A stretch of 64,000 nt of DNA from a virus (IMGVR_UViG_3300020200_000009:1-64000), one strand, 5' to 3'. Counted from the first letter of the stretch, positions 4,392 through 32,928 are shown. Made by a program: numbers and translations. The notes: generated by a model not told the origin, from the sequence alone.

Positions 4392-4892
4392 ATGAGTAAT
4401 CGTGACAATGAATGGTTTGCCATTAACGAACAATGGAAAGACTTGATAGGTCTTCCATGGACAGGCAGACGTATATACGGATGTTATGAAATTATTCGAA
4501 AATATTTCAAAGCGAAGTATGGGATGAAGTTGATTGATTTCAATAAGATGGGAGTCTTTGCATTTACAGATGAGGCAATTGAAGAGAGTGCTGCTGGGTG
4601 GGCTTATAGAAAAGAATGGGGAGATGAATTAGACTTTGATAGTTTACAAGCAGAAGATGTCTTAGTATTTCTTTTGTATACAACTCCTCTTGGTGGAGCG
4701 TATTCTGCACCAGTAGGGAGAGCACCTAATCACGGGGCAGTTTATCTTGGTAATGGATTTATGTTACATCATCCTTATGATGGTTTGTCGGAAATTGCAG
4801 ACCTCAGACTAGGCGCTTCTGCCATATGGCGTCAATCCTGTGTCGGTGCAATTCGTGGCAATCCTGGTGCAATTCCTGCGAATCCTATATAA
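4392..4892 (+). CDS. NlpC/P60-family cysteine peptidase (lambda gpK C-domain-like)
   Basis: LIGLPW...GCYEIIRKYF catalytic Cys; NHGAVYLGNGFMLHH His motif. Confidence 0.8.
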   Translation: MSNRDNEWFAINEQWKDLIGLPWTGRRIYGCYEIIRKYFKAKYGMKLIDFNKMGVFAFTDEAIEESAAGWAYRKEWGDELDFDSLQAEDVLVFLLYTTPLGGAYSAPVGRAPNHGAVYLGNGFMLHHPYDGLSEIADLRLGASAIWRQSCVGAIRGNPGAIPANPI

Positions 4893-4906
4893 GAGGATAT
4901 AGCAAG

Positions 4907-5077
4907 ATGACTATGAAGAGATATGTTTTAGATGTTGAGGAAGACGAGCATACTGGAGAGTGTTATGTCACATTTCCTGAGGAATTGCTTGAAGAGACTG
5001 GATGGGAAGAAGGCACACAATTAGAATGGTCCGAAGAGATTGATGGATCTATTATCCTTCGGAAAGTTGAAGAGTAA
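4907..5077 (+). CDS. AbrB/MazE/SpoVT-like small DNA-binding protein
   Basis: YVTFPEELLEETGWEEGTQLEW...GSIILRK fits the swapped-hairpin pattern. Confidence 0.65.
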   Translation: MTMKRYVLDVEEDEHTGECYVTFPEELLEETGWEEGTQLEWSEEIDGSIILRKVEE

Positions 5078-5102
5078 AAAAATCCGAAAAACCGCGTTAA
5101 CC

Positions 5103-5369
5103 ATGAATAACGATTATGATAGAGAAGAGGTAGTAGGTGATATTCCTACTGAATTCAACTCACCAGAAGAATATACCACGTGGTGTGTAAATAATTTAGC
5201 GCAAGCAATTACTAATTTATCCACTCGTATTACTAACTTGGAAATGATTATCCAAAAAATACCGCCCCCAGGTGCTGATATGATTCAGTATAAAATTCCA
5301 GGTACGGATGACTATAAAAATGTAAAAGAATTATTTGATGATATCTATTCAAAAATAGAGTCTAAATAA
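5103..5369 (+). CDS. Hypothetical protein with a coiled-coil segment
   Basis: Likely ATG at 5103 within track ORF 5040-5369. Confidence 0.7.
   Translation: MNNDYDREEVVGDIPTEFNSPEEYTTWCVNNLAQAITNLSTRITNLEMIIQKIPPPGADMIQYKIPGTDDYKNVKELFDDIYSKIESK
5362..5368 (+). promoter_or_regulatory. Late promoter CTAAATA
   Basis: 24 nt upstream of ATG 5393. Confidence 0.65.
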
Positions 5370-15700: not shown

Positions 15701-18700
15701 TTACAATTTATGGTGCAAACCCTGTAGTTTATAATGGCACATTTATTGTAACGTCTCGTATTGATGACCTTACATTTTCATATCAATTAACTACTCCAAC
15801 TACCATAGTCCCTCAAGGTAATATTATTCTTTCTGTTGACTTAAACAGAGGGAAGTCTGATGTTACTTCAATTAATAAAATAATCAACGAATTTACCTCT
15901 AACGTTCAAAATACATTCTTCAACAAAGATTATGTCTATGTTGCTGCAAGTGGTCTTCCAAACTATAAAATTGGACCTTTTACTGGGTCTGCCCTTATTC
16001 CTGGAAATCAACGTAAACTACTAAGATTCCCCAGAAAAGTCCAGACTATTTCAGAAAGACAAAGTATTACTCCTGGCACATCTATTGGTGCCTGGATAAA
16101 TGGAGTTTCAATTTGGTCTTATAAATCAAGAGAATTCGTTAGATTTGGACCCATTACATCTATTGATGTTTTAAATGGTGGTGATGGATATGATGCAGGA
16201 AATCTACCTGCGCTAGAAATTAACGGTGGTAATGGCACAGGTGCTGCAGCAGAAGTGGAAATTAATGGAAAATTAGTTTCTTTTGATGTAACTAATAAAG
16301 GCAGTGGTTATACCGAACAACCTTTAGTTTCCATTGTCGGTGGTGGTGGTGTTGGTGCTACTGCACAAGCAGTTGTTACTGGTGGCAAAGTAACTAGAAT
16401 CTTAGTTGAGCAACCTGGTAGTGGATATACATCTCAACCATCAGTATCTATTACTGGTGGTGGGGGCACTGGTGCAGTTGCTGTTGCTAGCGTTAGAGGA
16501 CCCGTAAAATCTGTTAAGGTTACTGCTTTTGGTAGTGGGTATACGTCAGTGCCAACTATTAGATTGAATTCTGGTGAAGATGCATTAGCACAACCAATTG
16601 TAATTAATGGTCGTCTCGTTTCCATTGCTATCATTAATTCTGGAAAGGGATATACAACTCCACCTACACTTGTTATTAATGGAGATGGTTTTGGTGCTAT
16701 TGCAAAAGCAATTATTGGTACAGTTGGTGAAGATAAAGGTCGAGTTTTAAGTGTTGAAATTCTAAACAAAGGTATCGGATACACTCAAGGTAATACGACA
16801 ATTAGATTAGAATCTGTAGGTGAAAATGCAACATTCCAAGCAAATGTATTTGAGTGGAATAAAAATCTTCAATCAGAGTTATCTGCTAAGTTTGATTTTG
16901 CTAGTGGTTACGTTTTTACAGGAGCAAATAATCAGTTTGGTGGAGAATATGCTCACCTATCAGATCCTAAGCAGTTAAGATATGTTGTTGGTGACAATGT
17001 TTTCTTAAATCCTGTTACACAAAAATTCCAAGAATTAAGTGCAAACTTTAAGCACTCCCCAATCTTAGGTTGGGCATATGACGGCAATCCAATTTATGGT
17101 CCATATGGATATATTGACCCAACAGACCAAAATAGTGGCATTAGAAGACTTCGCACATCATATAAGTTAAAGACTAATATTGTATTTGATGCCATTACTA
17201 ATCCAACTCCTGCCCGTATTGATGGTCCATCATTAACAACATATCCTGCAGGGACTTTCATCGATGATTACTTCTATAATTTCCAATCTGGAGATTTAGA
17301 TAATTATAATGGTCGTTTTTGCAAAACTCCAGATTTTCCAGATGGAGTATATGCATATTTTGTCACTGTTGATGCATCGGATGCTGGTATTGCAGAGTTT
17401 CCATATATTGTTGGACCTCAATATAATTCATTACCAGATGGTTGGAATTTTGGTCAAGGGGCAACCCAAGAAAATATTCCAATGGATGTTGTTAGGTTTA
17501 GAGACCCATTTACTGATGTTGATATTGATGTAGAGCGCCAACCAAACCAAACAACTAGTATACTTACTACAGAAATTGAAGGATATCCAATTGTTTTTGA
17601 TATTCAAGATTCAAATAACGATGGGTTGATTGACGCAAATGAACAACAAGAGGTATTAGAGTTATCAGAAGAAGCAACTCTACAAATTTTTGATTACTTC
17701 CCACAAGTATCTGTAGAATCTAGAGTCGATATTGAAGTTGAGAGCACTACTCAATTTGAAGATGCTATAATCGATGGATTTGTAATTGAAAATCCAGGTG
17801 TTTCGTATCAAGTAAATGATGTAGTATTTTTTGATAATGAAGGTACTGGTGGATTTGGTGCATCTGCATTAATTGATTCCGTTAAAGGTCAAAAACTTGT
17901 TAGTTATACAAAAGAAATTATTGCTGATAAACCATATGGTGTAATAACAACTGAGATTGGACATGAATTAAAGCAGAATGATGAAATTATTGTAGATTCG
18001 ACTCCAGTCCTTGATAATACCAATAAAACATTTAAAGTTAAAGTTGTTGCTGGTATCGAAAAAATTAATATTATACAAAGCGGCACAGGATATAACGAGA
18101 CTATTCCACCAACATTTGAATTACTGTCAGAAACTGGACAAGATGGTGCACTTGAGCTGGTATTAGAAAATACTGGGCAAATTAATAAAGTTAATATTAT
18201 TAATTCTGGAAATGCATATGATACTGCAAATCCTCCAGAGATTCGTGTATCACACCCACAACAATTTAAGAAAACTCGTTATTGGTTAACTGAGTATTAT
18301 GAAGCATCTGGTGTAGTAAGAGTTTATCACTCTGTAACTACTTCTCAAAGATTTACATATATTTGTGGAAGTATTACTGAAACAGATGGTGATATTGCAG
18401 GATTCATTGCTAAGTTTGATGACCTTGGATCTAAGGTTTGGGAGAGAAATTTACTTCCACAAAACGCTGGTCAAAAACGATTAGAATTTGTCAAAATGGT
18501 GGTCACTGAAGACACCGAAAATGATTTTATCTATTTGGTTGGTCAATCATATAATACTGGAAGCACACAATATAATCCAGATGTCTTCCTTGCATTATAT
18601 GAGTCTGGATATAATAATGCAAATGTCCCTGATGGAATTCTGAAGTGGCAAAGGTCAATTGCTGGTATTTCTGGTAGCACTAGAAGAGATTATGTAACGT

Positions 18701-21700
18701 CAATCGCTCTTGACCAAGAGAAGAGAATTTATATCTGTGGATATACAGATACAAACTCTCCTGATCCAGACGACATGTGGGTTATCCAATGTAGTATTGA
18801 TGGGGATATTAAAGAGAAGCGTAAGATTGCATCTGAAGATGCATCTGAAAAGATGTATCAGATTCAAATGATAAAAGATGACATATTCTTCTTTGTTGGA
18901 GTAAATGAGGATAATGACGATTTACTCTTTGGTCAATTTGAATTTGATGGTGCAAATATTGAAGTTGATTGGATTAATCAAATTCCTGTTATTGGTGGAC
19001 AAGTGCAAAATCCAAAATTTGCATTTGATGAGTATGGAGCATGTGTTGTTGTTTGGGATGTATTTAACTCAGTAACTGCTAAAGTTGAAAAAATTCAAGT
19101 TAGTAAGTTTCTGTTAGAAACTGCTAGATCTGTATGGGATTGGTCCAAGACTGTTACACTTTCAACAACATTCACATCCATTAATAACGCTGGAATTTCT
19201 GTAGATATATTTGGTAACTATGTAGTAGTATCTGATGTAGTAACAGAGCAGAATGAAAAATTTGCAATAATTCATTACTTAAAATATGATGGCAGTATCC
19301 TTAAAGAAACTAAAGTTAAAGATGTAACTAATATTGGATTTAGTGCAAAACATCACACCACAGATAATTCTGGTGATTGTATTATCGTAGCAAATCGTCA
19401 ACAATCAAACCAATTAGCATCCTTTAGATTTAATACTTTTGGAAACCTAGAATTTGATTTTACAAAACAAAAGTTAGCAACTTGGTCATATGTAGACCAA
19501 ACAAATGTAACTTTAGACTCAACTGTATTTAAATATGGCACTCGGTCATTGAAGTATCTTGCTGGAGGTAAACCAGCAAAACTGAATAATTTTAATATTA
19601 CTCCAGTTGAATGGTCAATGAGAGCATGGTTCTCAATGAAGACTACTGCTTGGTCAACCGCCCATGAACCTGTATTCTTTGAAGTTGTCCCTGCTACTGG
19701 TAGCAAGATTCGTTTTAGTATCGATGGCAATTCAAGTAGTCCCAATTATCAAAAAGTATTAGTATACGTCAATTCCACTTTAGTTGCATCCTCAGTTTCA
19801 CAAACCAGTTGGACTGCCTTCGGTGGCGCTGCTTGGGTGCACATTACCTTCCAGAAGCGTTTAGAATCTCTTGGTCTCTATAAGTATGAAGTATTTGTTA
19901 ATGGTAATCTCCAATTAAGTTATCAATCCACTACTGACATTGGTCTTGATGATGTTGTAATCGGTGGTCCTGTAACATCACCAACTACAACTAACTGCTT
20001 TATCGGTAATATTGACGATTTGGTTATTGATGATATTGCACCATACTTTAACTCATACACTGTGCCAACAGCTGAAATTGAGATAACCACTAGAGACTCT
20101 GATGTTGCATTAATTAAGTTTGATAGATTACATACAAACCGCGATACCTTTACTTTTGCAGATTTAACAAAGTATAAAGACTTTGAATTTAGTGATATTG
20201 AAAGTACTACAACTTGGACAGACATTGTTATTCCTGGATTTACTACCTGGGAACTAGGTCCTGGTGGATTACAAATTCTCGATATGTCTCAGGTAGTGTC
20301 AACCTTTAATCCAACAACATTTAATTTAACTACTAAAAAATATCAATATACATCAAAAACCTCTACAATTCCTTCTCCTAGAGGTAAGAGATTACTGATT
20401 ACATCCGAAGTAATTAATAAATTCTACTTAAAAGATGCATCTTATCAAAAAATTGATAATGTGATGAATATTGTATTAAATCAAGATGTAAAATTCACAA
20501 AATATGCTCTTTTACAACAATTTAATTCTTTAGGTGTTGTTTCAGCATTTGGCACAATTGTAGAAGTCCCAACAGGATCTTTAACACAACCTGGAGTTGG
20601 AAATACCTATAAAATTGGTAAAGTTTTTGGCACCTTCAACACTACAGATAGATTAAAAACTAGTGTAGGTGATATTAACCACATTGAAGGAGAATACTTT
20701 GATACTGAAGAAGCAGAATCTCCCTGGCAACCTGGCAAAGCGTATGTAGTCGGAAATAGAGTATATTCAAACAAGAGAATTTATGCTTCACAGACAGATG
20801 GAGTTTCTGGCACCATTTCACCACAACATACAGCTGGTACTGCAACTGATGGGAATCTCAATTGGGCATTAGTCGGTAATGCAGGTATCTTTACTATAAA
20901 CTTGGCAGAAAAACCATATCCAAGACCAAAATATACAGATTTGGATATGCCTGAGTGGGATGCTCATAAGTTATATGCTGTTGGTCAAAAAGTATGGTGG
21001 AAATTAAACGTTTATACAGTAGCAACTGGTGGAGGTGGAGTTTCTGGGACTAATCCTCCAGTTCACTCTAGTGGTAATGCATCCGATGGTGGAGTAACTT
21101 GGAGTCATACATCTACTAACACACCAATTTCTTCATTTGCAAGATTTTTACCATATGACCAAGGAAATCATTACAGTGTTACTATTGAAGAAATACATCC
21201 TGGGTCGAATTTTATTCCTGGAGATGTAGTAACTTTTAATCAATCAAATCTTCAATTGTCAACAGATAGAAAAGTTGCAACTATTCTTGGATTTGCATCT
21301 GTTAAAAAAATTCGTGTTACAGCACGTTTAGAAAAAGATATTATTCCACAAACTCCTACTAGGACAAATTTAGTATACTGCACATCATCGACTCCACACT
21401 TCTATAAGGAATCAGATATTATTTTCAGTGAGGGATTCCAAGGCACTCAATTCAATGGGTCATTCTTTGTTAAGGATGTTATTGGTAGTAGAGATTTTAT
21501 ATTCGCAATCCGATCAACTGCTCTTACAGCACCACAATTTACTTCAAATGCAATTGCAAATGTTAATATCTATGCTAAGCACCCAACATTAACTTTTACA
21601 CGTAATCATCAATATAATTTTGATTTGAGTGATGCATCTAATTTTGGTTATTATCTCTCATTCTCTCAAGATAATCAATATAAATTAGAATATTCATTCA

Positions 21701-24700
21701 ATAATATTATTAGGGAAGGCACTCCAGGGATAGCTGCTCTAGGAGCTGCACCATTTGTTAAATTCCTAGCAATCGGTGCTCTTACAAATATTTCTTATTA
21801 TTTCGATCCATCACGCATTGGTAATACATCTCCAGTGGGAGCAAATTCATTTATTGACGTATTAGAAACTCCATTCAAAGGACGATTTAAAATCAATGAG
21901 GTCACTAATGATTTCACCTTTAAATTCCCGCTTTTGATAGAACCAGAAAGGTCATCTGCAGAAGTTGGAGCTGACGACCAGGATAATGAATATTCATATT
22001 ATTCAACTACTTCAGTAAAAGCAGTTGGTCCAATCAACTCAATTAAACTTGTTTCTCCTGGTGGATTCTATAAGAAACTTCCAATTGTTAAAGAAATTGC
22101 ATCTTTCCGCAGAATTGAAAAAATTATTATTGTCTCTGGTGGCACAGAGTATGCCCCTGGTGTATATTACGATGTCCCTATTTTTGGAGATGGAGAAGGA
22201 GCAAAATGTATTGTTACTGTAGATTTTGATGATGAAGTGGGGTCTGGCACCGTAGTCGATATTGATATATCGGACCCAGGAAAAGGATATACCTTTGCAA
22301 CTGTAGATATTGATGCAATCCCAGGAATTTTAGGACCACAACTTGCTGGCTCTGGTGCTGTAGCTACGGTAATCATTCCAGAAGAAGGTAGCGGATCGTC
22401 AGTATTCCTCACTGGTAAGAATATTGGTAAGATTAAGAGATTAAAAAATAATGAATTTGGATTTGGTTATTCACATGACTACACATTAAAACCAGAAATT
22501 ACATTCCCAGTTAATTTACAGTTATTCAATACTTCTATTCTATCTCAAATCAAGGTTACTAATCCTGGTAGTGGATATACATCTGCTCCTGCAGTAGTTA
22601 TTGAAGGTGGTGGCGGTACTGGTGCTGATGCACTTGCAATTATTAAGAATAATCGTTTAAGTGAAATTCAAATTAAAAATCCTGGGTCTGGATATTCATC
22701 AGAACCAACAATAACCCTTAAATCAGAATTTAACTACGTAGTTAACCTTGACCTCAACTATTTGCAGTTTAATTTCCCGCATGGTATTACAACTGGTGCT
22801 CCAATTCAACTTAGAGCTGAAGATGTCGGCACTACTGTTGGTGAGCTTCCAAAACCAAGTAGTGCTGGTTTAACAACTTTAGTTGAAGGACAAATTTATT
22901 ATGCAATTACTGGAGATATAAACTCTCTTGAGCCAGCTCAACTTAGATTTGCGTTAACAGCACAGGCTGCAGCTGCTGGCGATTACATTACATTTTTAAC
23001 ACAAGGTAGTGGTCGTCAAGTTCTATTGACGGAAGTCTTCGGTGGTAAAGCCGAAGCAGTTGTAGAAACTTCAAGATTCTTAGCAGGCGAAACAGTATTC
23101 CAAGGAAGCACTATTGAGCAGGCGACTGCAATAGGTAAAGTATCTACAAATACTGGATGGCAGATTGGTCCCAAAATTCTAAAAATTGTTGATTATGAAG
23201 GAGATTGGAAAATCGGGGAAAAGGTAAACGGTGTTATTTCTAAAGCATCTGGAGTAATTGATAATTTGAGCATGGCTCGTGGTGTGTTGAATATTGGGTC
23301 ATTAACTAAAACTCCTGGTAAGTTTATTGATGATGTGGGCAAACCTTCAGAAATTGTCCAAAAAATTCAAGATTCATTCTTCTATCAAAACTTCTCATAT
23401 GTTGTTAAGTCTGATATTCCAATTACAAGATGGAAAACCCAAATTTTACGAAATAACCACGCAGCTGGATTCTTAATGTTTGGACAATTGCAATTGTCTG
23501 GTGGAAAAGATATATCTGGACGTAGAGTTGCAACGGCGTTTACAAAAGAAGTAAACATTAATAACTATGCAAATATTAATGAAATCACTTCTTTTGCTGC
23601 GGCAGAACCAATCTATACCGACTATAATAATACAGAAGTCCTTTTCCGTAAGAAGCGTTTAACATCTTCAGAAGAAATTCTGACTTCTATCGTTAAAAAA
23701 TTGGACAATATAGCTAATCTCTTTAATGGAATTGATAAAGCATTCCCATTAACGATTCAAGGGGAGCAAGTAGTAATTAATACTAATCAGTTGCTTATTA
23801 CACTGAATGGTGTAATTCAATCTCCTGGAGATGCATATCAAGTAGTTGGCGGAAATATTGTATTCTCAGAGCCACCTAAACCGTCATCTAAGGTAGTTTA
23901 TAAAACATTAGGAATTACTCCTATACCGATTTATAGAATTGCTTTATATAGTGCACAGGTTGGTGCTACTAATTATGGTATTTTCCCAACATTAGGGCAA
24001 CAAGTAAAGGGCAATAATAGTAATGTTATTGCTACAGTAATTGATTCTGGCACAAATCATATTGATGTTATTAATCTTACTGGTGGGTCATTCCAATTGA
24101 ATGAAGAAATTGTTAGAGGAAATTTATTCTCTGCATTAGTACAAACAGTAACTCTTCTTAATACTGAAACTATCTTTAGATTTGAGGAAACAGTTACTAA
24201 TTTAAGTGGAAATACGGCAGTTATCAATCAAGTTAATGTCAATAATGGTCAATTAACAGATAGAGTAGTTGTAAGTAAAACATCTGGCACTGCTGAATAT
24301 GAGACAGGAATTTTTGATATTAAATTAAACGACTTCATTTATTCAGCATCTAGTAAAATTGCTGGTAAGGTAACATATATTTCACCTTATGTTGACCCAC
24401 AAACTAATCAACCTGTTGAAGAATTAATTCTCAACCAAGGGTCAACTTTTTACGGATTGCTGTTTGAGCGTTTAGTTAGTATTACCAATCCCAATATTAT
24501 CCTTGATGATATTTCAAAATCATCTATTACTCCAACAGAATTATATGACTCAGATAAACGTATTAATTCCAGTTTCTTAAGTTTTGAAGATGTAAGAAGC
24601 ACAGAAGTTGAATATACAGATCTTGCTAATGGCACTTTAGTAGACGAAGAATTTGTTGCAAACAAAAAAGTAGTTTATGCAAATCCCGTTTCGGCATATC

Positions 24701-27700
24701 ATGGAAGTGCTACTAATAGATTTAAAGATGCATCAGACATGATTAAATTCAATAAGCAAGAAATTATTGATTTTGCTGAAGCTGAAATTGCTGTGGAATT
24801 CCCAGACTTTTACTTCCCTGGTGATGTTATTACAAATCCATTCAGCAGATATTCAGATGCTTATAGAATGATTCAGAAAAATAAAAATCTGATTGTGGGT
24901 ATGGCATATGATGATATGAAGACCCAGTATCCATCAGCAACTATACCAAATGTTAATAAGTGCAAGAGAGATCTTACTTATTTCGTAGATGCATTGTCAA
25001 TTGACGTTTTCCGTGGGGGAAATGTATATACTAGAAAATTCACTTTGCAATATTTTGTCAATGGCACTTTCACTTATGTAAATGCTCAAGAATTAGAGAC
25101 TCGTTTCGCTTACGAAAAAGCACTGAGCTGGATGAAGAAAGCAATTACTAATCAACTGGCTGGCACTATTACTGCAGTAAACTCTACAGATTCTTGGGTT
25201 GGATATCAAGATTTAACAATCACTGCAGACCCATCACCAAATGACCCATATGGCACAAATGGAAGTAATACAAGTAACACAAATATCGATGTCTGCTCAG
25301 ATGTACAAGACGCTCTTGAAACACTTTGGGAGATAGTTGATGTTGCTTTGGGTGATGGCGACCTCACTGAATTACCAGATGAAGACCTAGGCACATATTC
25401 TCCTAATGAAATTAAGTGCCGTCGCGATATTGGTCTCTTTATTGATGCTATTGCAGATGATGTAGATAGAGGTGGAAACTATAACATTGTAAAATTCACT
25501 AAAAAATATTTCAATACTAGTGGACAACCTATTACAAATGGTTTAGTTAATGAAGAAGCACAGTCAGTTGTTGCATTTGAAAAAGCAAGAGACCTTGCAT
25601 ATAGAGCAATTAATAATCTCTTATACTATAAGATTCTTTCTCCTGTCAGTCCTAATTACAATCTTAACGACCCTCTGAGTTACGGTGGTACTGCACCAGG
25701 TCATACTTATGACGCAAACTATAGTTCTGGTAATAATCAAGATGTTGCAAACTGTGCTGATGTTAAATCGTATATTGCAACACTTACTGATATTGCAGTT
25801 GATGCCATCGTTGCTGGAAATCTGGATAACATTAATGCACTGTCAAGTATTACTGATGGCACATATGAAGACGGTGAAAATGTTAGGTCAACTAAACTTG
25901 CCTTTAAGAATAAATCTACAGGATTATTCACAACTGGAGACCAGATTAAAGGTGTAACTAGTAATGCAATTTTCAAAGCAATTGGGTCTAATACAGGACT
26001 GAAGTGGATTTATGCTGGACCAATCACTGGAACATTCCAAGTTGGTGAGTATATTACAAATTCAACTCTTACAAATCAAGGTGGTGTTACTCAAAGTGTT
26101 GTTGTTAAGAAAGCAGAATTAAGTGGCACAAAATCTCTCAAATTCTCTGGCACCTCATATCTTAGTGCAGCAGAATCATATGATTTTAATTTTGGTGCTG
26201 TAGATAATTTTACACTTGAGGGTTGGATTAGACCATCTGGTATCACTGGCACCCAACATATCTTTGATTTAAGAAGGGTTGTTGATTCTGGGTTAAGAGT
26301 TATCATGGATAATAAAAAACTCAGAGTTTATGATGGCACAACATCATTAATCATTAGTGCAGATGTATTTAATACGGCAAACACATGGTATCACGTTTCA
26401 GTCGTAAGAACTAATAATGTCCTTCAGGCATATGTAAATGGTGCACAAGTTGGGTCTAATTATGCAGATACTAACAATTATAAGTATGCACCATGCTACG
26501 TTGGATCTAGTTTCCAGGGCACCAGTGCATTTACTGGATATATGGATAATGTATATGTGAAGAAGGGCGAGTCAGACCATACTGGTGCTTTCACACCCCC
26601 AACACAAATTGATTATACAGATAGTAACATTGTGCTTGGATTGGATGGAGAAGGTCCACTTATTGTTTCGACAACAGACACTTATGCAACGTTAACTAGT
26701 GTTAATGTGTATAGCTCAACTATCAAAGTAGTAGACTATGAGAATTTGAGTTTTGTAATTAAAGATATTGACCTTGGTAGAAAAGAATACAGAGATTGTG
26801 CAAAAATTATTGGTGTGAATTCAGCTTGGATTGCTGATGAAGCAGTTGGACGCATGAAAACTCAGTTTCCTGATTTCATTATGCCTGGAGATGACCCAGG
26901 AAGTAATCAATATGGTGGCACAAATTACTGCATAAGAGACACAAGAGATTTTATTATTCCAGCTTTGGTAAAAGATTTAGAAACTGGAGGAAATTATAAT
27001 ACTTTATATACTGCTCGTACATATCTGACAACATCTGGTAAATTGCAGCATATTGGAAATGAAATTCTTCAAACTGTATATACTTGGGATGAAGTAAGCA
27101 ATATTATGATTGATGTAATCACTACAGTAAGTAGTGATTTGACTGGTGCATATTCAGATAGACTTCGTATTCCAAATAATTTTGCTTCACCTGCATCACA
27201 AGCGGTGCAAGATGAAATCCGTAAACTTATGGATGACATGTTGGAGGTTATTGCACCATCTCCTGATAGATTCCGTGATTCTGGAGTTATTATTTGGAAA
27301 AACCGCGATTATATTGCTGATGAAGTTGTTGGTTATATTCAGAACAAATATGTCCAAACTCTTGGTGGTGTTGCAGTAGATTTCCTGATTATTCCTGGTG
27401 GAGATGCCGCATGTAAGAAAGATATTAAGACTTATATTATTCCAGCAATTATTGCTGATTTAGCGACAGGCGGCACATATCAAACACAAACTGTAATTGA
27501 CAATTATCTCGATAGTCAAAAGAATATTTTGTTTGTTGAAGATGAATTAAATCCAATGTTGGATGCATTTAATAGGACAAAAGAATTGTGCCAATATGCA
27601 ATTAATAATCTTCTGTTGAACCCAGGTGAAACTGCTGCTGGTTTAGGGGTGCCAACCTGGGTGCAAGATGACTATTATGAGCCACAATATACTACGAAAA

Positions 27701-30700
27701 ATGCATATCGTGATACAACAATTACTATTGATGATGAAGGATATCCACAAACCAATCGTGTCAAAAATGATAGATTCATTGATGCAACTAATTTAATCAA
27801 GTCTAATAAAGAATTAATTGCTCAAGAAGCAGTTGCAATAATGAATAATCTATCTAAATTTGGAGATTTACAAATTCCTGGAGGGCACGTTAACTGTGAA
27901 GATGATGTTAAAGATGTATTAGATGCACTTATCCATGATTTACTGTATGATTGCAATGATAGAATATATGGAGCAGCATCACTGTATATTGAGCCAGAAA
28001 ATAATTCTCTTAGACATATTGAGTCTGAATGGGAAGCATCTGTAACAACGTTTAAAATTGTTAGAGATATTGCAACTCTAACAATGAGAAATGCTTTCGG
28101 TAGAGATTATATTCCTGGCACAAATAGATCTACTACAGCTGTAGAAAGCTATGAGCAGAATCCAAAAGACACTATTTTTGCAGACTGCGGTAATGCAATT
28201 GATGGAAATATTCGTTATATTGCCGAGCAAGCAGTATATGATGGACAACAACAATATCCAACTCTTGTAATTCCAGGTGGCTCAATTAACTGTGTGCATG
28301 ATGTTACTGATATCTTAGAAGCTCTGGTATTTAACCTTAAGTATGGTGGTGATAACTGGATGCAATATGCTACAGAATACTATGTAAACTATTCTGGTAA
28401 TTTACAGCATATTACATCTCAATCAGCTCAAACTATTTGGATTTTGAATAGAGCTAGAGATCTTGCAATTAAGGCAATTAAAGATGCTCCAATTACAAAT
28501 AACTCTGGGTCTACTAATATTCAAAGATATTATGATGCTGCACCAAATCCAACAAACCAACTGAGAAATTCAAATCAAACAACTGGAGTTATTATTACTG
28601 CATTTAATAACTCAGTCACCAGAACGTTTGCAGCAGGTACAAATAATATTGAAAATGCTGACAATACTAGCACTGGTATGGATAACAGTGACGATTTTGT
28701 TGCTCGTTGTGTTACGATACTTCCATCAACTACTCCAGTGAATTGTGTATTATTTGAAGGTGGTAGCACTGCCCAGGGCACATGGATTGGTTTCAGAGAT
28801 AATGGCACTTATTTAAGATTACGTGCAGGTACTGGAACTACTGCATATTCTGGAGGTGCAAGTTATACTAGTGATACTGGATTAGCAATGTTAGATATTC
28901 CTGTCTCAACATTGACTACAGCTGGTTACATGGATGGTAACCAACATGAATTAGTCTGGGAAGTTAGAGTTGGCGGTAATATTGCAACTGGACCAGGAAG
29001 AGTTAGATTGTTTATTGATGGTAACCTTGTTGGCGAAGCATCTACACCTGGTGTTTTAAATACTGGTCTTGGCGCTGCAGCAGGACTTTGGTCTAATGGT
29101 AACGTAGGAACGTTTGCAGCAACTGCAGCTGCAGTACCAAATGGAGAGCCAACTACAGCATGGCCATACCAAATTACTGGCACCATGTCTTACTATCGTG
29201 GTCGTTTAGTAGACCCAGGTTATACTGGTAATGAGGCAGCAGCAGTTATTGCTGATATTACGACCTTAATGCAAAAAGTTACCAGTGGTATTCAAACTCC
29301 AGCAACGGTTGCAACTCGTACATATACCTTACCAATAGTTTGGCCAGTTAAATTTACTCCAGAATCTGTTAAGCGTGATTTAAGTATTACATTTGATTCT
29401 GCTGGCGGTGGCAGTGGTGCAACCAGTACTTGGAATGCTACATGCTCAGAAGTTGCTTCTGCAATCAATACATTAATGGAAATATTAATTGATACTATTG
29501 AAAATGCAGCAAATAGTAATATTAATTATCTTTCAAGTATAACTAGAACATTTAAACCAACAAATAATACCATATATCAATATGGCACTTGCCATGATGT
29601 TGTGTCTGCGATAGATACGCTGTTTACCTTAATGTCTGAGACATTAGGTGCTGGTGCAGAGAATGCAAAAATGGTTGCAAATATGATTCTCTTCAATCAA
29701 ACAGCAATTGCTACAAGAGCACTTGATAAAACTACTTCATATTATGGCACAACAAATCTAACGATTGGATTCTGTAATAATGTCCTTAAAGCACTTCGTT
29801 ATGACATGATTACTGGAGGAAATGGGGCAACATTCTACTTGCTGCAGAGTTGGTTTGATGGCGAAGGAAACTTTATTGCATTCCCCACTGTAACTAGGTC
29901 TCATTTAATATATTGCATTACAAGACTCAGAGAATACATTAAGAGTGCAATGTATTTACTAGGTAGTGACCCAGCGTGGGCAACATATACCACTTATGAC
30001 CCACCTGGAAGATTAGAATGGTATCAAGAAGCTGCAGAATTTATTATAGATTCTTCTCTTAACCCGATTGAATTTGCATTAAGAAATTCTAAATTCCCAA
30101 CTGAAGCAAAAGTAACATTCCAAGCATCTGCTCATGCAGTAAATCTTAAGAATACTTACAATATGGGAATTGATTACAATACTGACCCAGCACTTGTTAC
30201 TCTCTTACCATTGATAGAAGTCGGATACGAGCGTGCTGAATATAGAATTAGAATTAATCGTCCTAACTTCTTCCGTAGAGGAGATATTCTCCAATATGTC
30301 CCAGCATCGTCAACTCCTCTTACTGGTTTGCAAAGTAATGAATACTTCTATGTAATTAATGCAGAAGCAAGTTGGTTTGAAATTGGTGCCCACTATATTC
30401 ATGATGGAAGATTTAGAAAATTTGAGGTAAGCACTACAAATACTGGAGCACAAATTTTACAGGTTGTTAGAAGATCTGGAGTTGTACAGAAAGATCCTAT
30501 TTTTGCAGTTGACCCATCAGATACACCAGTGCTTGGAGGATTTAATCTATCTGATATAATCTATGGAGTTACTTCAGAAGCATCTGCTGAGGTTGGGTTT
30601 GTGCAGAAGAATCTGGCCAAGATATTCAAAACATTCAACAGATATGACTTGATTGATGTCTCTGAAACATTGGGCGTATATGACAACTTTATAAATGGTG

Positions 30701-32928
30701 AGCAAGTTGTAGTCCAAGGAGCAACAACTAATACTGGATATGTTTATCAAACCAAAAATACAAATGATGATGGTGAAACATTTGTAAATATCATTGACAA
30801 AATTGGCACTATTTCAATTGGTGATACCATCTTAGGTATTACTAGTGGCACGACTGCTGAAATTGCTGCTATTTCTGACAGGATGTTGTTAAATGTCAAG
30901 TCTGGTGATTTCGCAGCAAATCAATGGTTGTTTGCAGAAAATGATGCAACGGAAGCATACATTACCGAATATGTAAATAAGAGCGGCACATTGACAGGGA
31001 ATACAGGAGGACGTATCACAATTGATGTTGAGACTATTCAGAATAGTTGGAATACTGGTGATGTAATTTATGGAAGTTTGACCGATTATATTCTTGATGT
31101 CAAAGGTATTTCTGGCACTCAACTTCAATTGAATCAGTATATTCACGGAACGAATGTTTATCAATTAGAGTTAGGAGTTGCAATTACGGATACTGGTGTT
31201 GCCGATACATTTAGACCTGGAGATGAAGTATATCTGCTTCAAGGAACTACGATTAAGAATCCTGGATTCAAAGCTACCGTGACAGAGTATATTAACGATA
31301 CTATCAATAATATCCATAGATTGTTTATCGCAAACTTGATTGATGTTGGAACAGGAGCACCTATTTCAGAAGTTGCTATCAGCTCAAATAATATTGGTAA
31401 AGTTGATATCGGGTCTAACTTCCCAACAGTTTACGCAAACACAATTTCTTACACTAATACTGGATATACTTCTTATGGTAAAGTTGTTGCAATTGAGCAA
31501 AGTGGGATTACTGCGAAAATCTGGGTAGAAAACGCAGTTGGTGACTTTGTTAATAACATGACTGTTAAGTCAGATTATGGATGGGGCGCAGGCGTATCCA
31601 AAGCAACTATTCTCCAAGGTAGAGTTGATAGATATTTCCGTGGATTTGATGGATCTCAAACAACATTTAGTCTGACTATTAATAATGGAGAAGCATACTT
31701 CCCAGATCCAGCAGGACATTTACTTGTATATGTAAATGCTGTTTTACAACCACCTGGTCCTACAAATGCTTATATTGCATTCTCTGATAAAATTCAATTT
31801 ACTGAAGCACCTGAAGTTGGGTCAGAATTTATTGGGTCTTACATAGGTAAACTTCGTCAACTAGATGATATTAGCTTTGAGTTTGATTCATTGCGCTCAT
31901 CGTTTAACTTAAAGCGTGGCGGTCTTTTCTACTCACTAACCTTAACCGAAGGGTCGTCTTCTGCTACTATTTTACCAGAAAATAATATTCTTGTATCTCT
32001 GAATGGAATTATTCAAGAACCAGGTGTTGCTTATAGATTAGTTGGGTCTAGAATTATTTTCTCAGAAGTGCCAAGATCTGGAGCATCGTTTGTAGGATTC
32101 TCATATATCGGTAGTGATGCTGATGTTATTGCTGCAGATGTGGTGCCACCTATTGAATCTGGAGACAAATTATTCATTGAAGGTGAAGAATTTGCTCGTG
32201 AAGTTGCTGTTATTGAGTCTTCTAACTCATTAGTAACATTTGAATATACTGGGTCGGTTAAAGGTAGAAATGCTGCTGCACTAGCACAAATTAAAGGTGG
32301 TCAACTAACAAGTGCAATTTTAACAAATCCTGGTAATGGATATACAACACGCCCCAACGTAGATATAATTTCATCCTCAGGTTTTGATGGAAGAATTAAA
32401 GCTCTGATGGGTATCACAAGAATTGATGTTAAAACTCCTGGAGTTGGATATAAGAATCCAGTTGTTGCTGTAGACACAACTGTCCCAGATGATTTTGTTT
32501 CTCCAACTGGCACTCCAATTAATGGTGGTATTGATATTTACAACCCCGATGAAAATGATGATATTATTGATAATCCTATTCCTCCTGGTTTTATCGCTAT
32601 CAATCAAAACCCTGTAAACGTAACTGTTAACCAAGGTCAAACTGCATTATTTACAGTTGCTGCTACGGTATCTAATAATCAAACTCTAAATTATCAATGG
32701 CAGAAGAAAGAATATGGTGCTGTAACTTGGTCTAATATTATTGGAGCAAACCAAGCAACATATATTACATTGAATGCTGCTCAATCTGATGATAATGATG
32801 AATTTAGAGTTGCAATTACTGCTGCTGGTGCTGCGCCAACTTATTCGTTGTCTGCAATTATTACTGTGCAGACAGGAGCAACAGTAATTAATAACTTTAA
32901 TCCATCAAATATTTTTGATGACATCTAA
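12751..32928 (+). CDS. gp7: Giant (6725 aa) baseplate wedge initiator gp7, multidomain
   Basis: N-terminal QLPEFIREE...FLFEYYKSQE and IKDYYISKGT...FKIMFG; IQDSFFYQNFSYVVKS...HAAG gp7 motif; lies between gp6 and gp8; contains YHYH-like, propeller-like, two LamG, CBM-like, phycobiliprotein-like and C-terminal Ig domains. Confidence 0.88.
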   Translation: MQKNIAVSDRVEFQLPEFIREEDRQFVHFLFEYYKSQEKTGRPYDILNNLLNYLDLNNYSSDILSSNTSLLKDIGIYDTKIEIENIDGFQPQDGSIMIDNEVIYYETLTRGPDAIITPGISFSQFNKKKQLLENPFSLFNGVRKNFPLLFLGTPVAPPSAEHLIVITYNSMKVPNVDYFIEGDEIRFAVAPRARTGADDSEFTQIIYLVGYADQTIITTDSIPYQEWEGTKSYPLRVNTQSYTPTSEIGLIIEKNNKLQIPYEDYTVFNQEVIFKFPIGAADKINIRSIEYIAPSFGSGAQAVVSVANDGSVSKIISTQGGKDYRLEFAPKVIIQSKDGGSGSTAKSLVSGIKNINLIDGGQGYSTYNPPIPVVVAPTDSNGSQAKLSLTVDDETGQVDSITIDNSGSGYDFIPAITFINPGGAKISNPTIDSEGRLTIGSIQLTSGGNNYTNAPLVYIDPAPPGGISAQAISKVDQDGQVYEISITNRGRGYTTPPRARIIDPIGAQVLDVTVSSGVVTNIEMLTGGSGYIDAPSVYIVDDRKDAYGVPIGGTGATAVATIFNGEITDINITNFGTGYSTQYPPKVFIATPKSARASVTVGFNEVTGFDILQNGKGYSPSAFLNCSRGVSGAVGYDQQHNEIYAGESVLRQSNHPAGSIVTNLDSLFIKEIFDKFRRQYLPTISIDYSSVNPVQIIKQIKDYYISKGTKLATQYLFKIMFGEEVDVYYPKDEIISPSAATWVVDTILRVELISGNSENLLDSELIQYADPVDLNIKPATALIENVISIIQGKDTIYELEISEETLAGSFVIPYKTTLVEPLTTTSEIITVDSTIGWPERNGTILIDDYEEVQYKEKSLNQFIECTRKKNISVGEDWDPGTTIFSNIFVYTNKGTDRECKLRILGIAEAGTTVLDDTGSYYLPGDKLKVANLGSTVVGEERLNSWLYNVKKLIKVDTVTSGGVNNQTATIKCKNPHGLLVSDQVTIYGANPVVYNGTFIVTSRIDDLTFSYQLTTPTTIVPQGNIILSVDLNRGKSDVTSINKIINEFTSNVQNTFFNKDYVYVAASGLPNYKIGPFTGSALIPGNQRKLLRFPRKVQTISERQSITPGTSIGAWINGVSIWSYKSREFVRFGPITSIDVLNGGDGYDAGNLPALEINGGNGTGAAAEVEINGKLVSFDVTNKGSGYTEQPLVSIVGGGGVGATAQAVVTGGKVTRILVEQPGSGYTSQPSVSITGGGGTGAVAVASVRGPVKSVKVTAFGSGYTSVPTIRLNSGEDALAQPIVINGRLVSIAIINSGKGYTTPPTLVINGDGFGAIAKAIIGTVGEDKGRVLSVEILNKGIGYTQGNTTIRLESVGENATFQANVFEWNKNLQSELSAKFDFASGYVFTGANNQFGGEYAHLSDPKQLRYVVGDNVFLNPVTQKFQELSANFKHSPILGWAYDGNPIYGPYGYIDPTDQNSGIRRLRTSYKLKTNIVFDAITNPTPARIDGPSLTTYPAGTFIDDYFYNFQSGDLDNYNGRFCKTPDFPDGVYAYFVTVDASDAGIAEFPYIVGPQYNSLPDGWNFGQGATQENIPMDVVRFRDPFTDVDIDVERQPNQTTSILTTEIEGYPIVFDIQDSNNDGLIDANEQQEVLELSEEATLQIFDYFPQVSVESRVDIEVESTTQFEDAIIDGFVIENPGVSYQVNDVVFFDNEGTGGFGASALIDSVKGQKLVSYTKEIIADKPYGVITTEIGHELKQNDEIIVDSTPVLDNTNKTFKVKVVAGIEKINIIQSGTGYNETIPPTFELLSETGQDGALELVLENTGQINKVNIINSGNAYDTANPPEIRVSHPQQFKKTRYWLTEYYEASGVVRVYHSVTTSQRFTYICGSITETDGDIAGFIAKFDDLGSKVWERNLLPQNAGQKRLEFVKMVVTEDTENDFIYLVGQSYNTGSTQYNPDVFLALYESGYNNANVPDGILKWQRSIAGISGSTRRDYVTSIALDQEKRIYICGYTDTNSPDPDDMWVIQCSIDGDIKEKRKIASEDASEKMYQIQMIKDDIFFFVGVNEDNDDLLFGQFEFDGANIEVDWINQIPVIGGQVQNPKFAFDEYGACVVVWDVFNSVTAKVEKIQVSKFLLETARSVWDWSKTVTLSTTFTSINNAGISVDIFGNYVVVSDVVTEQNEKFAIIHYLKYDGSILKETKVKDVTNIGFSAKHHTTDNSGDCIIVANRQQSNQLASFRFNTFGNLEFDFTKQKLATWSYVDQTNVTLDSTVFKYGTRSLKYLAGGKPAKLNNFNITPVEWSMRAWFSMKTTAWSTAHEPVFFEVVPATGSKIRFSIDGNSSSPNYQKVLVYVNSTLVASSVSQTSWTAFGGAAWVHITFQKRLESLGLYKYEVFVNGNLQLSYQSTTDIGLDDVVIGGPVTSPTTTNCFIGNIDDLVIDDIAPYFNSYTVPTAEIEITTRDSDVALIKFDRLHTNRDTFTFADLTKYKDFEFSDIESTTTWTDIVIPGFTTWELGPGGLQILDMSQVVSTFNPTTFNLTTKKYQYTSKTSTIPSPRGKRLLITSEVINKFYLKDASYQKIDNVMNIVLNQDVKFTKYALLQQFNSLGVVSAFGTIVEVPTGSLTQPGVGNTYKIGKVFGTFNTTDRLKTSVGDINHIEGEYFDTEEAESPWQPGKAYVVGNRVYSNKRIYASQTDGVSGTISPQHTAGTATDGNLNWALVGNAGIFTINLAEKPYPRPKYTDLDMPEWDAHKLYAVGQKVWWKLNVYTVATGGGGVSGTNPPVHSSGNASDGGVTWSHTSTNTPISSFARFLPYDQGNHYSVTIEEIHPGSNFIPGDVVTFNQSNLQLSTDRKVATILGFASVKKIRVTARLEKDIIPQTPTRTNLVYCTSSTPHFYKESDIIFSEGFQGTQFNGSFFVKDVIGSRDFIFAIRSTALTAPQFTSNAIANVNIYAKHPTLTFTRNHQYNFDLSDASNFGYYLSFSQDNQYKLEYSFNNIIREGTPGIAALGAAPFVKFLAIGALTNISYYFDPSRIGNTSPVGANSFIDVLETPFKGRFKINEVTNDFTFKFPLLIEPERSSAEVGADDQDNEYSYYSTTSVKAVGPINSIKLVSPGGFYKKLPIVKEIASFRRIEKIIIVSGGTEYAPGVYYDVPIFGDGEGAKCIVTVDFDDEVGSGTVVDIDISDPGKGYTFATVDIDAIPGILGPQLAGSGAVATVIIPEEGSGSSVFLTGKNIGKIKRLKNNEFGFGYSHDYTLKPEITFPVNLQLFNTSILSQIKVTNPGSGYTSAPAVVIEGGGGTGADALAIIKNNRLSEIQIKNPGSGYSSEPTITLKSEFNYVVNLDLNYLQFNFPHGITTGAPIQLRAEDVGTTVGELPKPSSAGLTTLVEGQIYYAITGDINSLEPAQLRFALTAQAAAAGDYITFLTQGSGRQVLLTEVFGGKAEAVVETSRFLAGETVFQGSTIEQATAIGKVSTNTGWQIGPKILKIVDYEGDWKIGEKVNGVISKASGVIDNLSMARGVLNIGSLTKTPGKFIDDVGKPSEIVQKIQDSFFYQNFSYVVKSDIPITRWKTQILRNNHAAGFLMFGQLQLSGGKDISGRRVATAFTKEVNINNYANINEITSFAAAEPIYTDYNNTEVLFRKKRLTSSEEILTSIVKKLDNIANLFNGIDKAFPLTIQGEQVVINTNQLLITLNGVIQSPGDAYQVVGGNIVFSEPPKPSSKVVYKTLGITPIPIYRIALYSAQVGATNYGIFPTLGQQVKGNNSNVIATVIDSGTNHIDVINLTGGSFQLNEEIVRGNLFSALVQTVTLLNTETIFRFEETVTNLSGNTAVINQVNVNNGQLTDRVVVSKTSGTAEYETGIFDIKLNDFIYSASSKIAGKVTYISPYVDPQTNQPVEELILNQGSTFYGLLFERLVSITNPNIILDDISKSSITPTELYDSDKRINSSFLSFEDVRSTEVEYTDLANGTLVDEEFVANKKVVYANPVSAYHGSATNRFKDASDMIKFNKQEIIDFAEAEIAVEFPDFYFPGDVITNPFSRYSDAYRMIQKNKNLIVGMAYDDMKTQYPSATIPNVNKCKRDLTYFVDALSIDVFRGGNVYTRKFTLQYFVNGTFTYVNAQELETRFAYEKALSWMKKAITNQLAGTITAVNSTDSWVGYQDLTITADPSPNDPYGTNGSNTSNTNIDVCSDVQDALETLWEIVDVALGDGDLTELPDEDLGTYSPNEIKCRRDIGLFIDAIADDVDRGGNYNIVKFTKKYFNTSGQPITNGLVNEEAQSVVAFEKARDLAYRAINNLLYYKILSPVSPNYNLNDPLSYGGTAPGHTYDANYSSGNNQDVANCADVKSYIATLTDIAVDAIVAGNLDNINALSSITDGTYEDGENVRSTKLAFKNKSTGLFTTGDQIKGVTSNAIFKAIGSNTGLKWIYAGPITGTFQVGEYITNSTLTNQGGVTQSVVVKKAELSGTKSLKFSGTSYLSAAESYDFNFGAVDNFTLEGWIRPSGITGTQHIFDLRRVVDSGLRVIMDNKKLRVYDGTTSLIISADVFNTANTWYHVSVVRTNNVLQAYVNGAQVGSNYADTNNYKYAPCYVGSSFQGTSAFTGYMDNVYVKKGESDHTGAFTPPTQIDYTDSNIVLGLDGEGPLIVSTTDTYATLTSVNVYSSTIKVVDYENLSFVIKDIDLGRKEYRDCAKIIGVNSAWIADEAVGRMKTQFPDFIMPGDDPGSNQYGGTNYCIRDTRDFIIPALVKDLETGGNYNTLYTARTYLTTSGKLQHIGNEILQTVYTWDEVSNIMIDVITTVSSDLTGAYSDRLRIPNNFASPASQAVQDEIRKLMDDMLEVIAPSPDRFRDSGVIIWKNRDYIADEVVGYIQNKYVQTLGGVAVDFLIIPGGDAACKKDIKTYIIPAIIADLATGGTYQTQTVIDNYLDSQKNILFVEDELNPMLDAFNRTKELCQYAINNLLLNPGETAAGLGVPTWVQDDYYEPQYTTKNAYRDTTITIDDEGYPQTNRVKNDRFIDATNLIKSNKELIAQEAVAIMNNLSKFGDLQIPGGHVNCEDDVKDVLDALIHDLLYDCNDRIYGAASLYIEPENNSLRHIESEWEASVTTFKIVRDIATLTMRNAFGRDYIPGTNRSTTAVESYEQNPKDTIFADCGNAIDGNIRYIAEQAVYDGQQQYPTLVIPGGSINCVHDVTDILEALVFNLKYGGDNWMQYATEYYVNYSGNLQHITSQSAQTIWILNRARDLAIKAIKDAPITNNSGSTNIQRYYDAAPNPTNQLRNSNQTTGVIITAFNNSVTRTFAAGTNNIENADNTSTGMDNSDDFVARCVTILPSTTPVNCVLFEGGSTAQGTWIGFRDNGTYLRLRAGTGTTAYSGGASYTSDTGLAMLDIPVSTLTTAGYMDGNQHELVWEVRVGGNIATGPGRVRLFIDGNLVGEASTPGVLNTGLGAAAGLWSNGNVGTFAATAAAVPNGEPTTAWPYQITGTMSYYRGRLVDPGYTGNEAAAVIADITTLMQKVTSGIQTPATVATRTYTLPIVWPVKFTPESVKRDLSITFDSAGGGSGATSTWNATCSEVASAINTLMEILIDTIENAANSNINYLSSITRTFKPTNNTIYQYGTCHDVVSAIDTLFTLMSETLGAGAENAKMVANMILFNQTAIATRALDKTTSYYGTTNLTIGFCNNVLKALRYDMITGGNGATFYLLQSWFDGEGNFIAFPTVTRSHLIYCITRLREYIKSAMYLLGSDPAWATYTTYDPPGRLEWYQEAAEFIIDSSLNPIEFALRNSKFPTEAKVTFQASAHAVNLKNTYNMGIDYNTDPALVTLLPLIEVGYERAEYRIRINRPNFFRRGDILQYVPASSTPLTGLQSNEYFYVINAEASWFEIGAHYIHDGRFRKFEVSTTNTGAQILQVVRRSGVVQKDPIFAVDPSDTPVLGGFNLSDIIYGVTSEASAEVGFVQKNLAKIFKTFNRYDLIDVSETLGVYDNFINGEQVVVQGATTNTGYVYQTKNTNDDGETFVNIIDKIGTISIGDTILGITSGTTAEIAAISDRMLLNVKSGDFAANQWLFAENDATEAYITEYVNKSGTLTGNTGGRITIDVETIQNSWNTGDVIYGSLTDYILDVKGISGTQLQLNQYIHGTNVYQLELGVAITDTGVADTFRPGDEVYLLQGTTIKNPGFKATVTEYINDTINNIHRLFIANLIDVGTGAPISEVAISSNNIGKVDIGSNFPTVYANTISYTNTGYTSYGKVVAIEQSGITAKIWVENAVGDFVNNMTVKSDYGWGAGVSKATILQGRVDRYFRGFDGSQTTFSLTINNGEAYFPDPAGHLLVYVNAVLQPPGPTNAYIAFSDKIQFTEAPEVGSEFIGSYIGKLRQLDDISFEFDSLRSSFNLKRGGLFYSLTLTEGSSSATILPENNILVSLNGIIQEPGVAYRLVGSRIIFSEVPRSGASFVGFSYIGSDADVIAADVVPPIESGDKLFIEGEEFAREVAVIESSNSLVTFEYTGSVKGRNAAALAQIKGGQLTSAILTNPGNGYTTRPNVDIISSSGFDGRIKALMGITRIDVKTPGVGYKNPVVAVDTTVPDDFVSPTGTPINGGIDIYNPDENDDIIDNPIPPGFIAINQNPVNVTVNQGQTALFTVAATVSNNQTLNYQWQKKEYGAVTWSNIIGANQATYITLNAAQSDDNDEFRVAITAAGAAPTYSLSAIITVQTGATVINNFNPSNIFDDI

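Follow-up and report, generated by a model that had tools for sequence, protein, structure and literature searches.

What does a cyanophage gain from building relatives of the phycobiliproteins (PBPs) into its baseplate, and could these domains carry a pigment? The question is raised by the viral stretch IMGVR_UViG_3300020200_000009:1-64000 (the window: the whole 64,000 nucleotides analysed, to which all coordinates refer unless another record is named). A single open reading frame (ORF) of the window, 12751..32928 on the + strand, encodes a protein of 6725 amino acids (aa) and contains the whole PBP-like segment studied here. The segment comprises aa 3990-5780 (1791 aa) and holds 19 of the 32 cysteines of the protein. 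A preliminary description, made from the DNA alone, proposed that helical repeats in this segment are PBP-beta-like domains with bilin-attachment cysteines, and that the virion is possibly pigmented and light-responsive. We find that the segment is an array of PBP-family domains (helices A, B, E, F, G, a long loop, and H) inside a virion baseplate protein. The attachment of bilins to these domains is a tentative proposal, which is weighed below against its alternatives.

Repeats and cysteines in the segment

A hidden Markov model (HMM) of the repeat was built from six repeats and then enriched by copies from 35 IMG/VR loci. It finds seven copies of a helical core of ~105 residues, plus one half copy, in the 6725-aa protein, in line with the "about seven" alpha-helical repeats of the preliminary description. 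Six copies are strong, with independent E-values (i-E) between 6e-23 and 4e-35 (aa 4034-4134, 4186-4289, 4680-4791, 4841-4953, 5009-5114 and 5143-5244). When the same model was run on the other window ORFs of at least 80 aa, nothing scored better than E 0.06. The ten cysteine codons named in the preliminary description all lie in frame 0 and in the contexts given there. The first type comprises CKRD (24961), CRRD (25417), CIRD (26929), CKKD (27412), CEDD (27895) and CVHD (28291); the second comprises CSDV (25294), CADV (25753), CSEV (29443) and CHDV (29590). The features of the segment are listed below; helix H and the outer domain are assigned from the structural models described further on.

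24718..24831, + strand: half copy, helices A and B only (aa 3990-4027), predicted N-terminal part of an outer nested domain; HMM E 8e-4, profile positions 2-39
24850..25152, + strand: core of repeat 1, helices A, B, E, F and G (aa 4034-4134), with Cys4071-K-R-Asp4074; HMM i-E 4.6e-27
25294..25365, + strand: predicted helix H of repeat 1, which follows a G-H loop of ~45 residues and begins with Cys4182 (CSDVQDALETLWEIV); AlphaFold2 model
25417..25617, + strand: "repeat 2", the predicted E-F-G body of the outer domain, from Cys4223-R-R-Asp4226; HMM i-E 5.9e-23 (aa 4186-4289)
25753..25824, + strand: predicted helix H of the outer domain, with Cys4335 at its head (CADVKSYIATLTDIA); model helix 348-371
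26788..27123, + strand: repeat 3 (aa 4680-4791), with Cys4727-I-R-Asp and a long B-E loop of PBP-like length; HMM i-E 2.4e-33
27271..27609, + strand: repeat 4 (aa 4841-4953), with Cys4888-K-K-Asp; HMM i-E 2.1e-31
27775..28092, + strand: repeat 5 (aa 5009-5114), with Cys5049-E-D-Asp; HMM i-E 2.9e-32
28177..28482, + strand: repeat 6 (aa 5143-5244), with Cys5181-V-H-Asp; HMM i-E 3.9e-35
29443..29661, + strand: two more Cys-headed helices of the helix-H type (Cys5565 in CSEV, Cys5614 in CHDV); in frame and fitting the helix-H motif
29677..29952, + strand: repeat 7 (aa 5643-5734), degenerate and without C-x-x-D; HMM i-E 1.5e-11

The orthologs of repeat 7 likewise lack C-x-x-D in the alignment.

Kinship with phycobiliproteins

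The Pfam family PF00502 matched the 1791-aa segment with 33.2 bits (E 6.4e-8), above the gathering cut-off of 22.2 bits. Taken singly, the repeats were all below this cut-off (18.9 bits for repeat 1, 16.5 bits for repeat 3, and no match for the other four of the six), and NCBIfam gave sub-threshold matches only, with TIGR01337 apcB at E 0.0016 for repeat 3. Repeat profiles searched against PDB sequences reached best E-values of 1.2e-3 (six repeats), 8e-5 (57 rows) and 3.7e-6 (16 full units). Among the top 60 matches of each search, 60, 59 and 60, respectively, were PBPs or derived proteins (phycocyanin, phycoerythrin, allophycocyanin). The likeness to PBPs goes beyond chance, because the E-value improves as the profile deepens and the matches are almost only PBPs. 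In the profile alignments, the repeat cysteine falls on Cys84 and the aspartate at +3 on Asp87, which places the first cysteine at the bilin site, as had been suggested. The same alignments put YP...PG(G) on the B-E loop and GG(N/T) on PBP residues 100-102.

The predicted fold points in the same direction. The AlphaFold2 model of repeat 1, based on the 57-row alignment, has a predicted local distance difference test score (pLDDT) of 89.8 and a five-helix globin-like core. By VIA Z-score, its best match among 48,161 chains was allophycocyanin (Z 12.3, root-mean-square deviation (rmsd) 2.6, 105 residues aligned), followed by the ApcE bilin domain (Z 12.1) and phycoerythrin (11.5); photocobilin bilin domains reached 10.7 and heme sensor globins at most 8. 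Globin-coupled sensors and RsbR matched the models at Z 7-10, below the PBPs, and were absent from the matches listed in the PDB profile searches; the profile of 102 unique repeats contains no conserved His. Because helical models can score high by the arrangement of their helices, the fold evidence counts only together with the sequence evidence. PF00502, the PDB profiles and the fold ranking all agree, and the kinship claimed in the preliminary description is thereby confirmed: the repeats are true relatives of PBPs, of the PF00502 sequence family and with the PBP globin fold. We found no X-Y helical hairpin, as the alignments begin at PBP residue 22-31 (fold) or 33-39 (sequence) and no helices precede helix A within the repeat. 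Therefore, the domains are not classed as light-harvesting subunits.

Helix H and nesting of the domains

A second AlphaFold2 model covers aa 3985-4370 and was based on a 10-row ortholog alignment (pLDDT 75.7, predicted template modelling score 0.81, loops below 50). Its residues 37..217, spanning repeat 1 and the "CSDV" helix with the ~45-residue disordered loop between them, align onto residues 22..184 of phycoerythrin beta with Z 14.9, rmsd 3.7 and 152 residues aligned. Because this alignment extends through helix H, the Cys-headed "CSDV" helix is best regarded as helix H of repeat 1. Therefore, Cys4182 would end the G-H loop, at the topological place of beta-Cys153/155. The preliminary description had likened the second cysteine to the beta-155 type; the model supports its topological position, and a residue-exact equivalence is only putative, as HMMER left helix H unaligned.

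Several globins align over residues 3..371 of the second model (Z 6-7), where the helices at 6-32 are packed against the later E-G body and the last helix. Therefore, the half copy, the E-G body of "repeat 2" and the "CADV" helix appear to form one outer domain. In the model, repeat 1 is inserted in the B-E loop of this outer domain. We also observed a recursive, "Russian-doll" order of the elements (24718-25824, aa 3990-4358): halves with helices A and B only are followed by a complete domain and, after it, by E-G bodies, each with a Cys-headed helix to close it. Entire PBP-like domains would therefore lie in the B-E loops of outer ones. The same order of halves and then bodies was found in S-PM2 (NC_006820 55.5-58 kb), Syn1, Sf-FP1 and S-SZBM1.

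Conservation of the putative bilin-site residues

Conservation was assessed in the 102 unique repeats, taken from the window and from metagenomic loci, with identity between copies of ~20-30%. The cysteine is present in 90% of them (the rest being gaps), the aspartate at +3 in 90%, the helix B asparagine in 84%, the residues of the Asp...Gly-Gly-Asn motif in 75-88%, and one tyrosine in 89%. In the window, six of the seven repeats have both the cysteine and the aspartate, and three of these six have the arginine (CKRD, CRRD, CIRD). The 13 stretches from ten cultured phages contain 45 repeats, 41 of which have C-x-x-D; the other four are three P-SSM4 repeats and one copy of the repeat 7 type.

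The helix-H cysteine of repeat 1, Cys4182, is invariant in 10 of 10 orthologs, as is Cys4223, and Cys4335 is kept in eight of the ten. Among the cultured phages, the helix-H Cys motif occurs in 9 of the 13 stretches. The 16 full units were picked for having helix H, so that the invariance of their helix-H cysteine is a product of selection. An aspartate that is invariant in these units aligns with PBP position 39. In PBP beta subunits, the beta-155 bilin is held at its pyrrole nitrogens by Asp39, much as Asp87 holds the bilin of the 84 site. The Cys84-like cysteine also occurs without a helix-H cysteine, namely in repeats 3-6, the second protein of P-HM2, S-BM3 and ACG-2014f, which argues against a simple disulfide pair.

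Association with cpeT and bilin-synthesis genes

The repeat profile and PF06206 (CpeT) were each run against 25 cyanomyovirus genomes. Both were found in 19 genomes and neither in four (P-SSM2, S-SM2, S-SSM7, S-CAM9); two genomes had repeats only and none had CpeT only. The number of repeat matches was 3-11 in the 19 CpeT-positive genomes and 0, 0, 0, 0, 1 and 3 in the six CpeT-negative ones. The suggested co-occurrence with bilin enzymes and a lyase thus stands for cpeT, since all 19 CpeT-positive genomes have repeats, and fails for pebS and ho1, as judged from P-SSM2 and S-SSM7. In the source record of the window, which is judged ~50% complete and therefore says nothing either way, no cpeT, bilin reductase or heme oxygenase gene was found.

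The gene order is more telling than the co-occurrence counts. In S-PM2, Syn1 and Sf-FP1, a distance of 0.7-2 kb separates cpeT from the giant, repeat-bearing fibre gene downstream of it (~2 kb in Sf-FP1). The order in S-PM2 (NC_006820 163952-177267) and Syn1 (NC_015288 19938-33236) is cpeT, one to three short ORFs, a 2-oxoglutarate-Fe(II) (2OG-Fe(II)) oxygenase gene, the repeat-bearing "short tail fiber protein" gene, and gp12; in Syn1, a tRNA gene is also found among the short ORFs between cpeT and the oxygenase gene. Table 3 of Sullivan 2010 gives Syn1 as lacking cpeT; this entry is overruled by the GenBank annotation and by a PF06206 match of E 1.5e-35 (NC_015288 19938-20477). The oxygenase (T4-GC 104), encoded between cpeT and the giant fibre gene in S-PM2 and Syn1, is a possible fibre-modifying enzyme. 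We must also note that the S-PM2 record (NC_006820.1 168556-173383) has sixteen tRNA features inside the "short tail fiber protein" coding sequence, under the same locus tag, which looks like a coordinate error of the record.

As described in an excerpt of PMC2327270, T-type lyases are site-specific for beta-Cys155. The role of the phage cpeT was called unresolved in the portion of PMC3037559 that was consulted.

Distribution and light-dependent adsorption

Two tblastn searches of 50,697 phage records gave matches in 344 and 366 of them; apart from one named only "Marine", every matching record bears the name Synechococcus, Prochlorococcus or "Cyanophage". No phage named for a non-phototroph was among these matching records. 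The gp6 protein of the same window matches 2367 records from many hosts. The Pelagibacter phage HTVC008M, of the same family, gave no match to the repeat profile. In a HMMER search of 1.84 billion representative proteins, 1399 clusters reached E 0.001 or better, and a single protein had as many as 35 repeat stretches; the ten clusters inspected by name and source are all hypothetical metagenomic proteins. Some metagenomic proteins, 4800-6400 aa long, have 31-35 repeat stretches and so consist mostly of PBP-like domains. One inspected cluster is a partial protein from 2-5.5 kb contigs, labelled as a freshwater Nanopelagicaceae metagenome-assembled genome; it is likely mis-binned phage DNA.

As reported in the consulted part of PMC6628666, P-HM1 and P-HM2 fail to adsorb in darkness, P-SSM2 still adsorbs there, though less well, and S-PM2 needs light in a way that does not depend on photosynthesis. 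The repeat profile has six matches in P-HM1, six in P-HM2, none in P-SSM2 and 11 in S-PM2. Adsorption is also said to have been found by Jia et al. in 2010 to be lower under red than under blue, green or yellow light.

Pigment attachment and its alternatives

The full mechanism that we propose is as follows. The domains would gain bilin in the infected cell, supplied by the host or by phage ho1, pebS or pcyA. One bilin would be linked to the Cys84-like cysteine and held by the Asp87-like aspartate. Where the helix-H cysteine is present, a second bilin would be linked there, and the phage T-type lyase CpeT would serve that site; the first site would be served by host S/U-type lyases or by the domain itself. 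Through a pigmented baseplate or fibre, light would then act on the adsorption apparatus and alter its conformation or how far it is exposed. Such a light-gated pigment would explain light-dependent adsorption without a need for host photosynthesis. We consider it plausible, at a little below an even chance, that the domains are chromophorylated and that the pigmented baseplate or fibre is light-responsive. The general form of the proposal, in which most T4-like cyanophage virions carry covalent bilins on nested domains, loaded by CpeT, as a photoreceptor that gates adsorption to the light period, appears rather unlikely.

Several observations weigh against a pigment. Arg86 is near-invariant in PBPs; the arginine at +2, corresponding to this position, is kept in 44% of the 102 repeats, and 26% have an aspartate there (CxDD types). 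About eight residues before the cysteine, in the B-E loop, are missing in most copies when these are aligned with PBPs. All three repeats of P-SSM4 (AY940168, ~70.5-75.6 kb) have lost the cysteine (to Ala, Lys or Val), and the phage has retained cpeT. As for the structural comparison, Foldseek gave nothing at E 0.001 or better for either model (PBPs came first for the repeat 1 model, at E 0.03 and above), and the fold tool warns that helical models may reach Z ~14 against unrelated chains by arrangement alone. In the literature, we found no report of a bilin adduct or a coloured virion based on such domains.

The genomic association is open to similar objections. In the gp6 tree, the four genomes with neither repeats nor CpeT form one clade together with ACG-2014f (100/100 support; S-B64 is absent from this tree, since its gp6 did not pass 1e-10). 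We therefore discounted the p-value of the seemingly strong association between repeats and cpeT (Fisher p 0.0012): because the double-negatives form one clade, the independent events behind the association number perhaps two or three, and it is no more than suggestive. The repeats occur without CpeT in S-BM3 (one copy) and ACG-2014f (three partial matches), and C-x-x-D is kept in both. According to Table 3 of Sullivan 2010, P-SSM2 and S-SSM7 carry pebS and ho1. Despite this, the profile search found no repeats in either genome; hence, the bilin-synthesis genes have another role. Lastly, the repeat counts and dark adsorption agree in the predicted direction, but they concern four phages, of which two are near-identical, and amount to no test.

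P-SSM4 may be viewed as a natural "apo" control; Table 3 of Sullivan 2010 lists pcyA in this phage.

The best-surviving alternative is structural reuse without a pigment, to which we assign a substantial probability, somewhat above one in three. Here, the PBP fold would supply rigid helical building blocks that can be nested and that extend or adorn the baseplate or fibre, and the conserved Cys, Asp, Gly-Gly-Asn and Tyr would serve folding, helix capping or inter-domain contacts. Cultured genomes have 1 to 11 copies and single proteins as many as 35 stretches, a wide variation that is typical of fibre spacer modules. Repeat 7 and all three P-SSM4 repeats are retained without the cysteine, and the frequent replacement of Arg86 by Asp, the shortened B-E loop of most copies and the absence of the X-Y hairpin also suit this explanation. 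The co-occurrence with cpeT could stem from shared ancestry only. However, a lone cysteine with an aspartate at +3, kept in ~90% of copies at 20-30% identity, exactly at the bilin site and even where the partner cysteine is missing, is hard to explain by folding alone, and the synteny with cpeT in three genera would have to be a coincidence.

It is less probable, and on the whole doubtful, that the conserved cysteines have a redox function, form disulfides or coordinate a metal or some other ligand, with no part for bilin. For example, disulfides between domains could lock the nested array after the virion has left the cell, or a Cys and an Asp could form a metal site. The sea water around virions is oxidising, each full unit has two conserved cysteines, and the nesting brings the inner helix-H cysteine within ~40 residues of the outer Cys84-like cysteine. 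Nevertheless, many domains have the first cysteine without the second, and neither a conserved His nor a second Cys is found beside C-x-x-D.

A convergent or chance resemblance of a generic globin-like helical bundle to PBPs is very improbable: although single repeats fall below the Pfam cut-off, Foldseek finds no significant match, and globin sensors and RsbR also match at Z 7-10, three independent profile searches give almost only PBPs with E-values that improve with profile depth, Cys, Asp, the YP...PGG loop and GG(N/T) all lie on the same PBP columns, and PBPs top both fold searches, above all other globins.

The giant baseplate protein and its neighbourhood

The window represents the baseplate/tail module of a T4-like cyanomyovirus, with a PAAR protein, gp6, the giant ORF, gp8/9/10-like wedge and connector proteins, and the terminase farther on. 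The source record is an IMG/VR contig of 89.7 kb. The ORF upstream of the giant one (10623-12737) corresponds to phrog_219, a baseplate wedge subunit (gp6). Relatives of the 6725-aa protein carry the annotation "baseplate wedge initiator". By gp6, the closest cultured phage is Synechococcus phage S-SZBM1, with 64% protein identity; a megablast search of the PBP-like segment against phage records gave no match, so the window is without a close cultured relative at the DNA level. The ortholog S-SZBM1_208 (6619 aa) was identified by 71 peptides in mass spectrometry of CsCl-purified virions, as given in the consulted part of PMC9146016. The location directly after gp6 and the detection of the S-SZBM1 ortholog in virions bear out the placement of the protein at the gp7 baseplate position, which the preliminary description had made. 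Two further features belong to this description.

12751..32928, + strand: giant virion protein, at the gp7 (baseplate wedge initiator) position, directly after gp6
26149..26559, + strand: Laminin_G_3 / concanavalin-like domain between repeat groups; PF13385, E 4.9e-16, 59.7 bits, cut-off 27.6

The N-terminal part of the protein contains a YHYH domain (PF14240, E 7e-30) at aa 1369-1542 (16855-17376). A weak, sub-threshold Baseplate_wedge match was observed at aa 694-734. Pfam gave no match in the last 945 aa, nor in aa 5284-5550 (28600-29400), the ~250 residues that separate repeat 6 from the late Cys-headed helices. By eye, this latter region is similar to the Laminin_G-type insert.

Comparison with known systems

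Our search of the open-access literature found no description of PBP-like domains in cyanophage virion proteins. The known systems closest to the array are the PBP beta subunits (CpcB, CpeB) in features, namely the two putative Cys sites, the Asp39-like aspartate and the long G-H loop, and ApcE in context. With the beta subunits, the phage domains share a globin-like core of helices A, B, E, F, G and H and the YP...PGG loop; helix E begins with Cys-x-(R)-Asp and is followed by GG(N/T), and an aspartate aligns with position 39. The long G-H loop ends in a cysteine before helix H, in a position that resembles the beta-155 site in the model. In contrast to the beta subunits, the phage domains have no X-Y hairpin, and hence give no sign of alpha-beta monomers or discs. 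Identity is 12-23%, the B-E loop is ~8 residues shorter in most phage copies and Arg86 is often replaced. Moreover, the phage copies are nested or in tandem within a 6725-aa virion protein, whereas the beta subunit is a free protein of 170 aa.

The core-membrane linker ApcE likewise has a PBP-fold domain within a large multidomain protein (fold match Z 12.1-13.2, rmsd 2.0-2.4). The PBP domain of ApcE has an insertion in its B-E loop. Unlike the phage protein, ApcE is cellular, belongs to the phycobilisome core and has a single such domain, whereas the insertion in the phage loop is another whole PBP-like domain. ApcE attaches its bilin autocatalytically, according to the consulted part of PMC2327270.

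Photocobilins (8j2y/8j2w) and the BBAGs (Rockwell et al. 2023) are globin-fold bilin binders used for sensing, and match the fold with Z 9.4-10.7. Their scores are below those of PBPs, they were absent from the matches listed in the PDB profile searches, and they are cellular and not virion proteins. The cyanophage CpeT, a T-type lyase homologue and an orphan enzyme, is encoded by a separate gene and accompanies the repeats in 19 of the 19 CpeT-positive genomes.

Two cyanophage questions have been open for 15-20 years: adsorption that takes place only in the light and is independent of host photosynthesis, and the purpose of the phage cpeT and bilin-synthesis genes. The domains described here are a candidate substrate of CpeT and a candidate light-responsive part in the virion, and the residues and peptides to examine are now defined. 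If true, the pigment proposal would reveal a light sensor within a virus particle, the first of its kind, and would explain both the phage cpeT and light-dependent adsorption. Even if the domains bear no pigment, the recruitment of an antenna fold into a virion protein, together with recursive domain insertion in the B-E loops, remains unusual.

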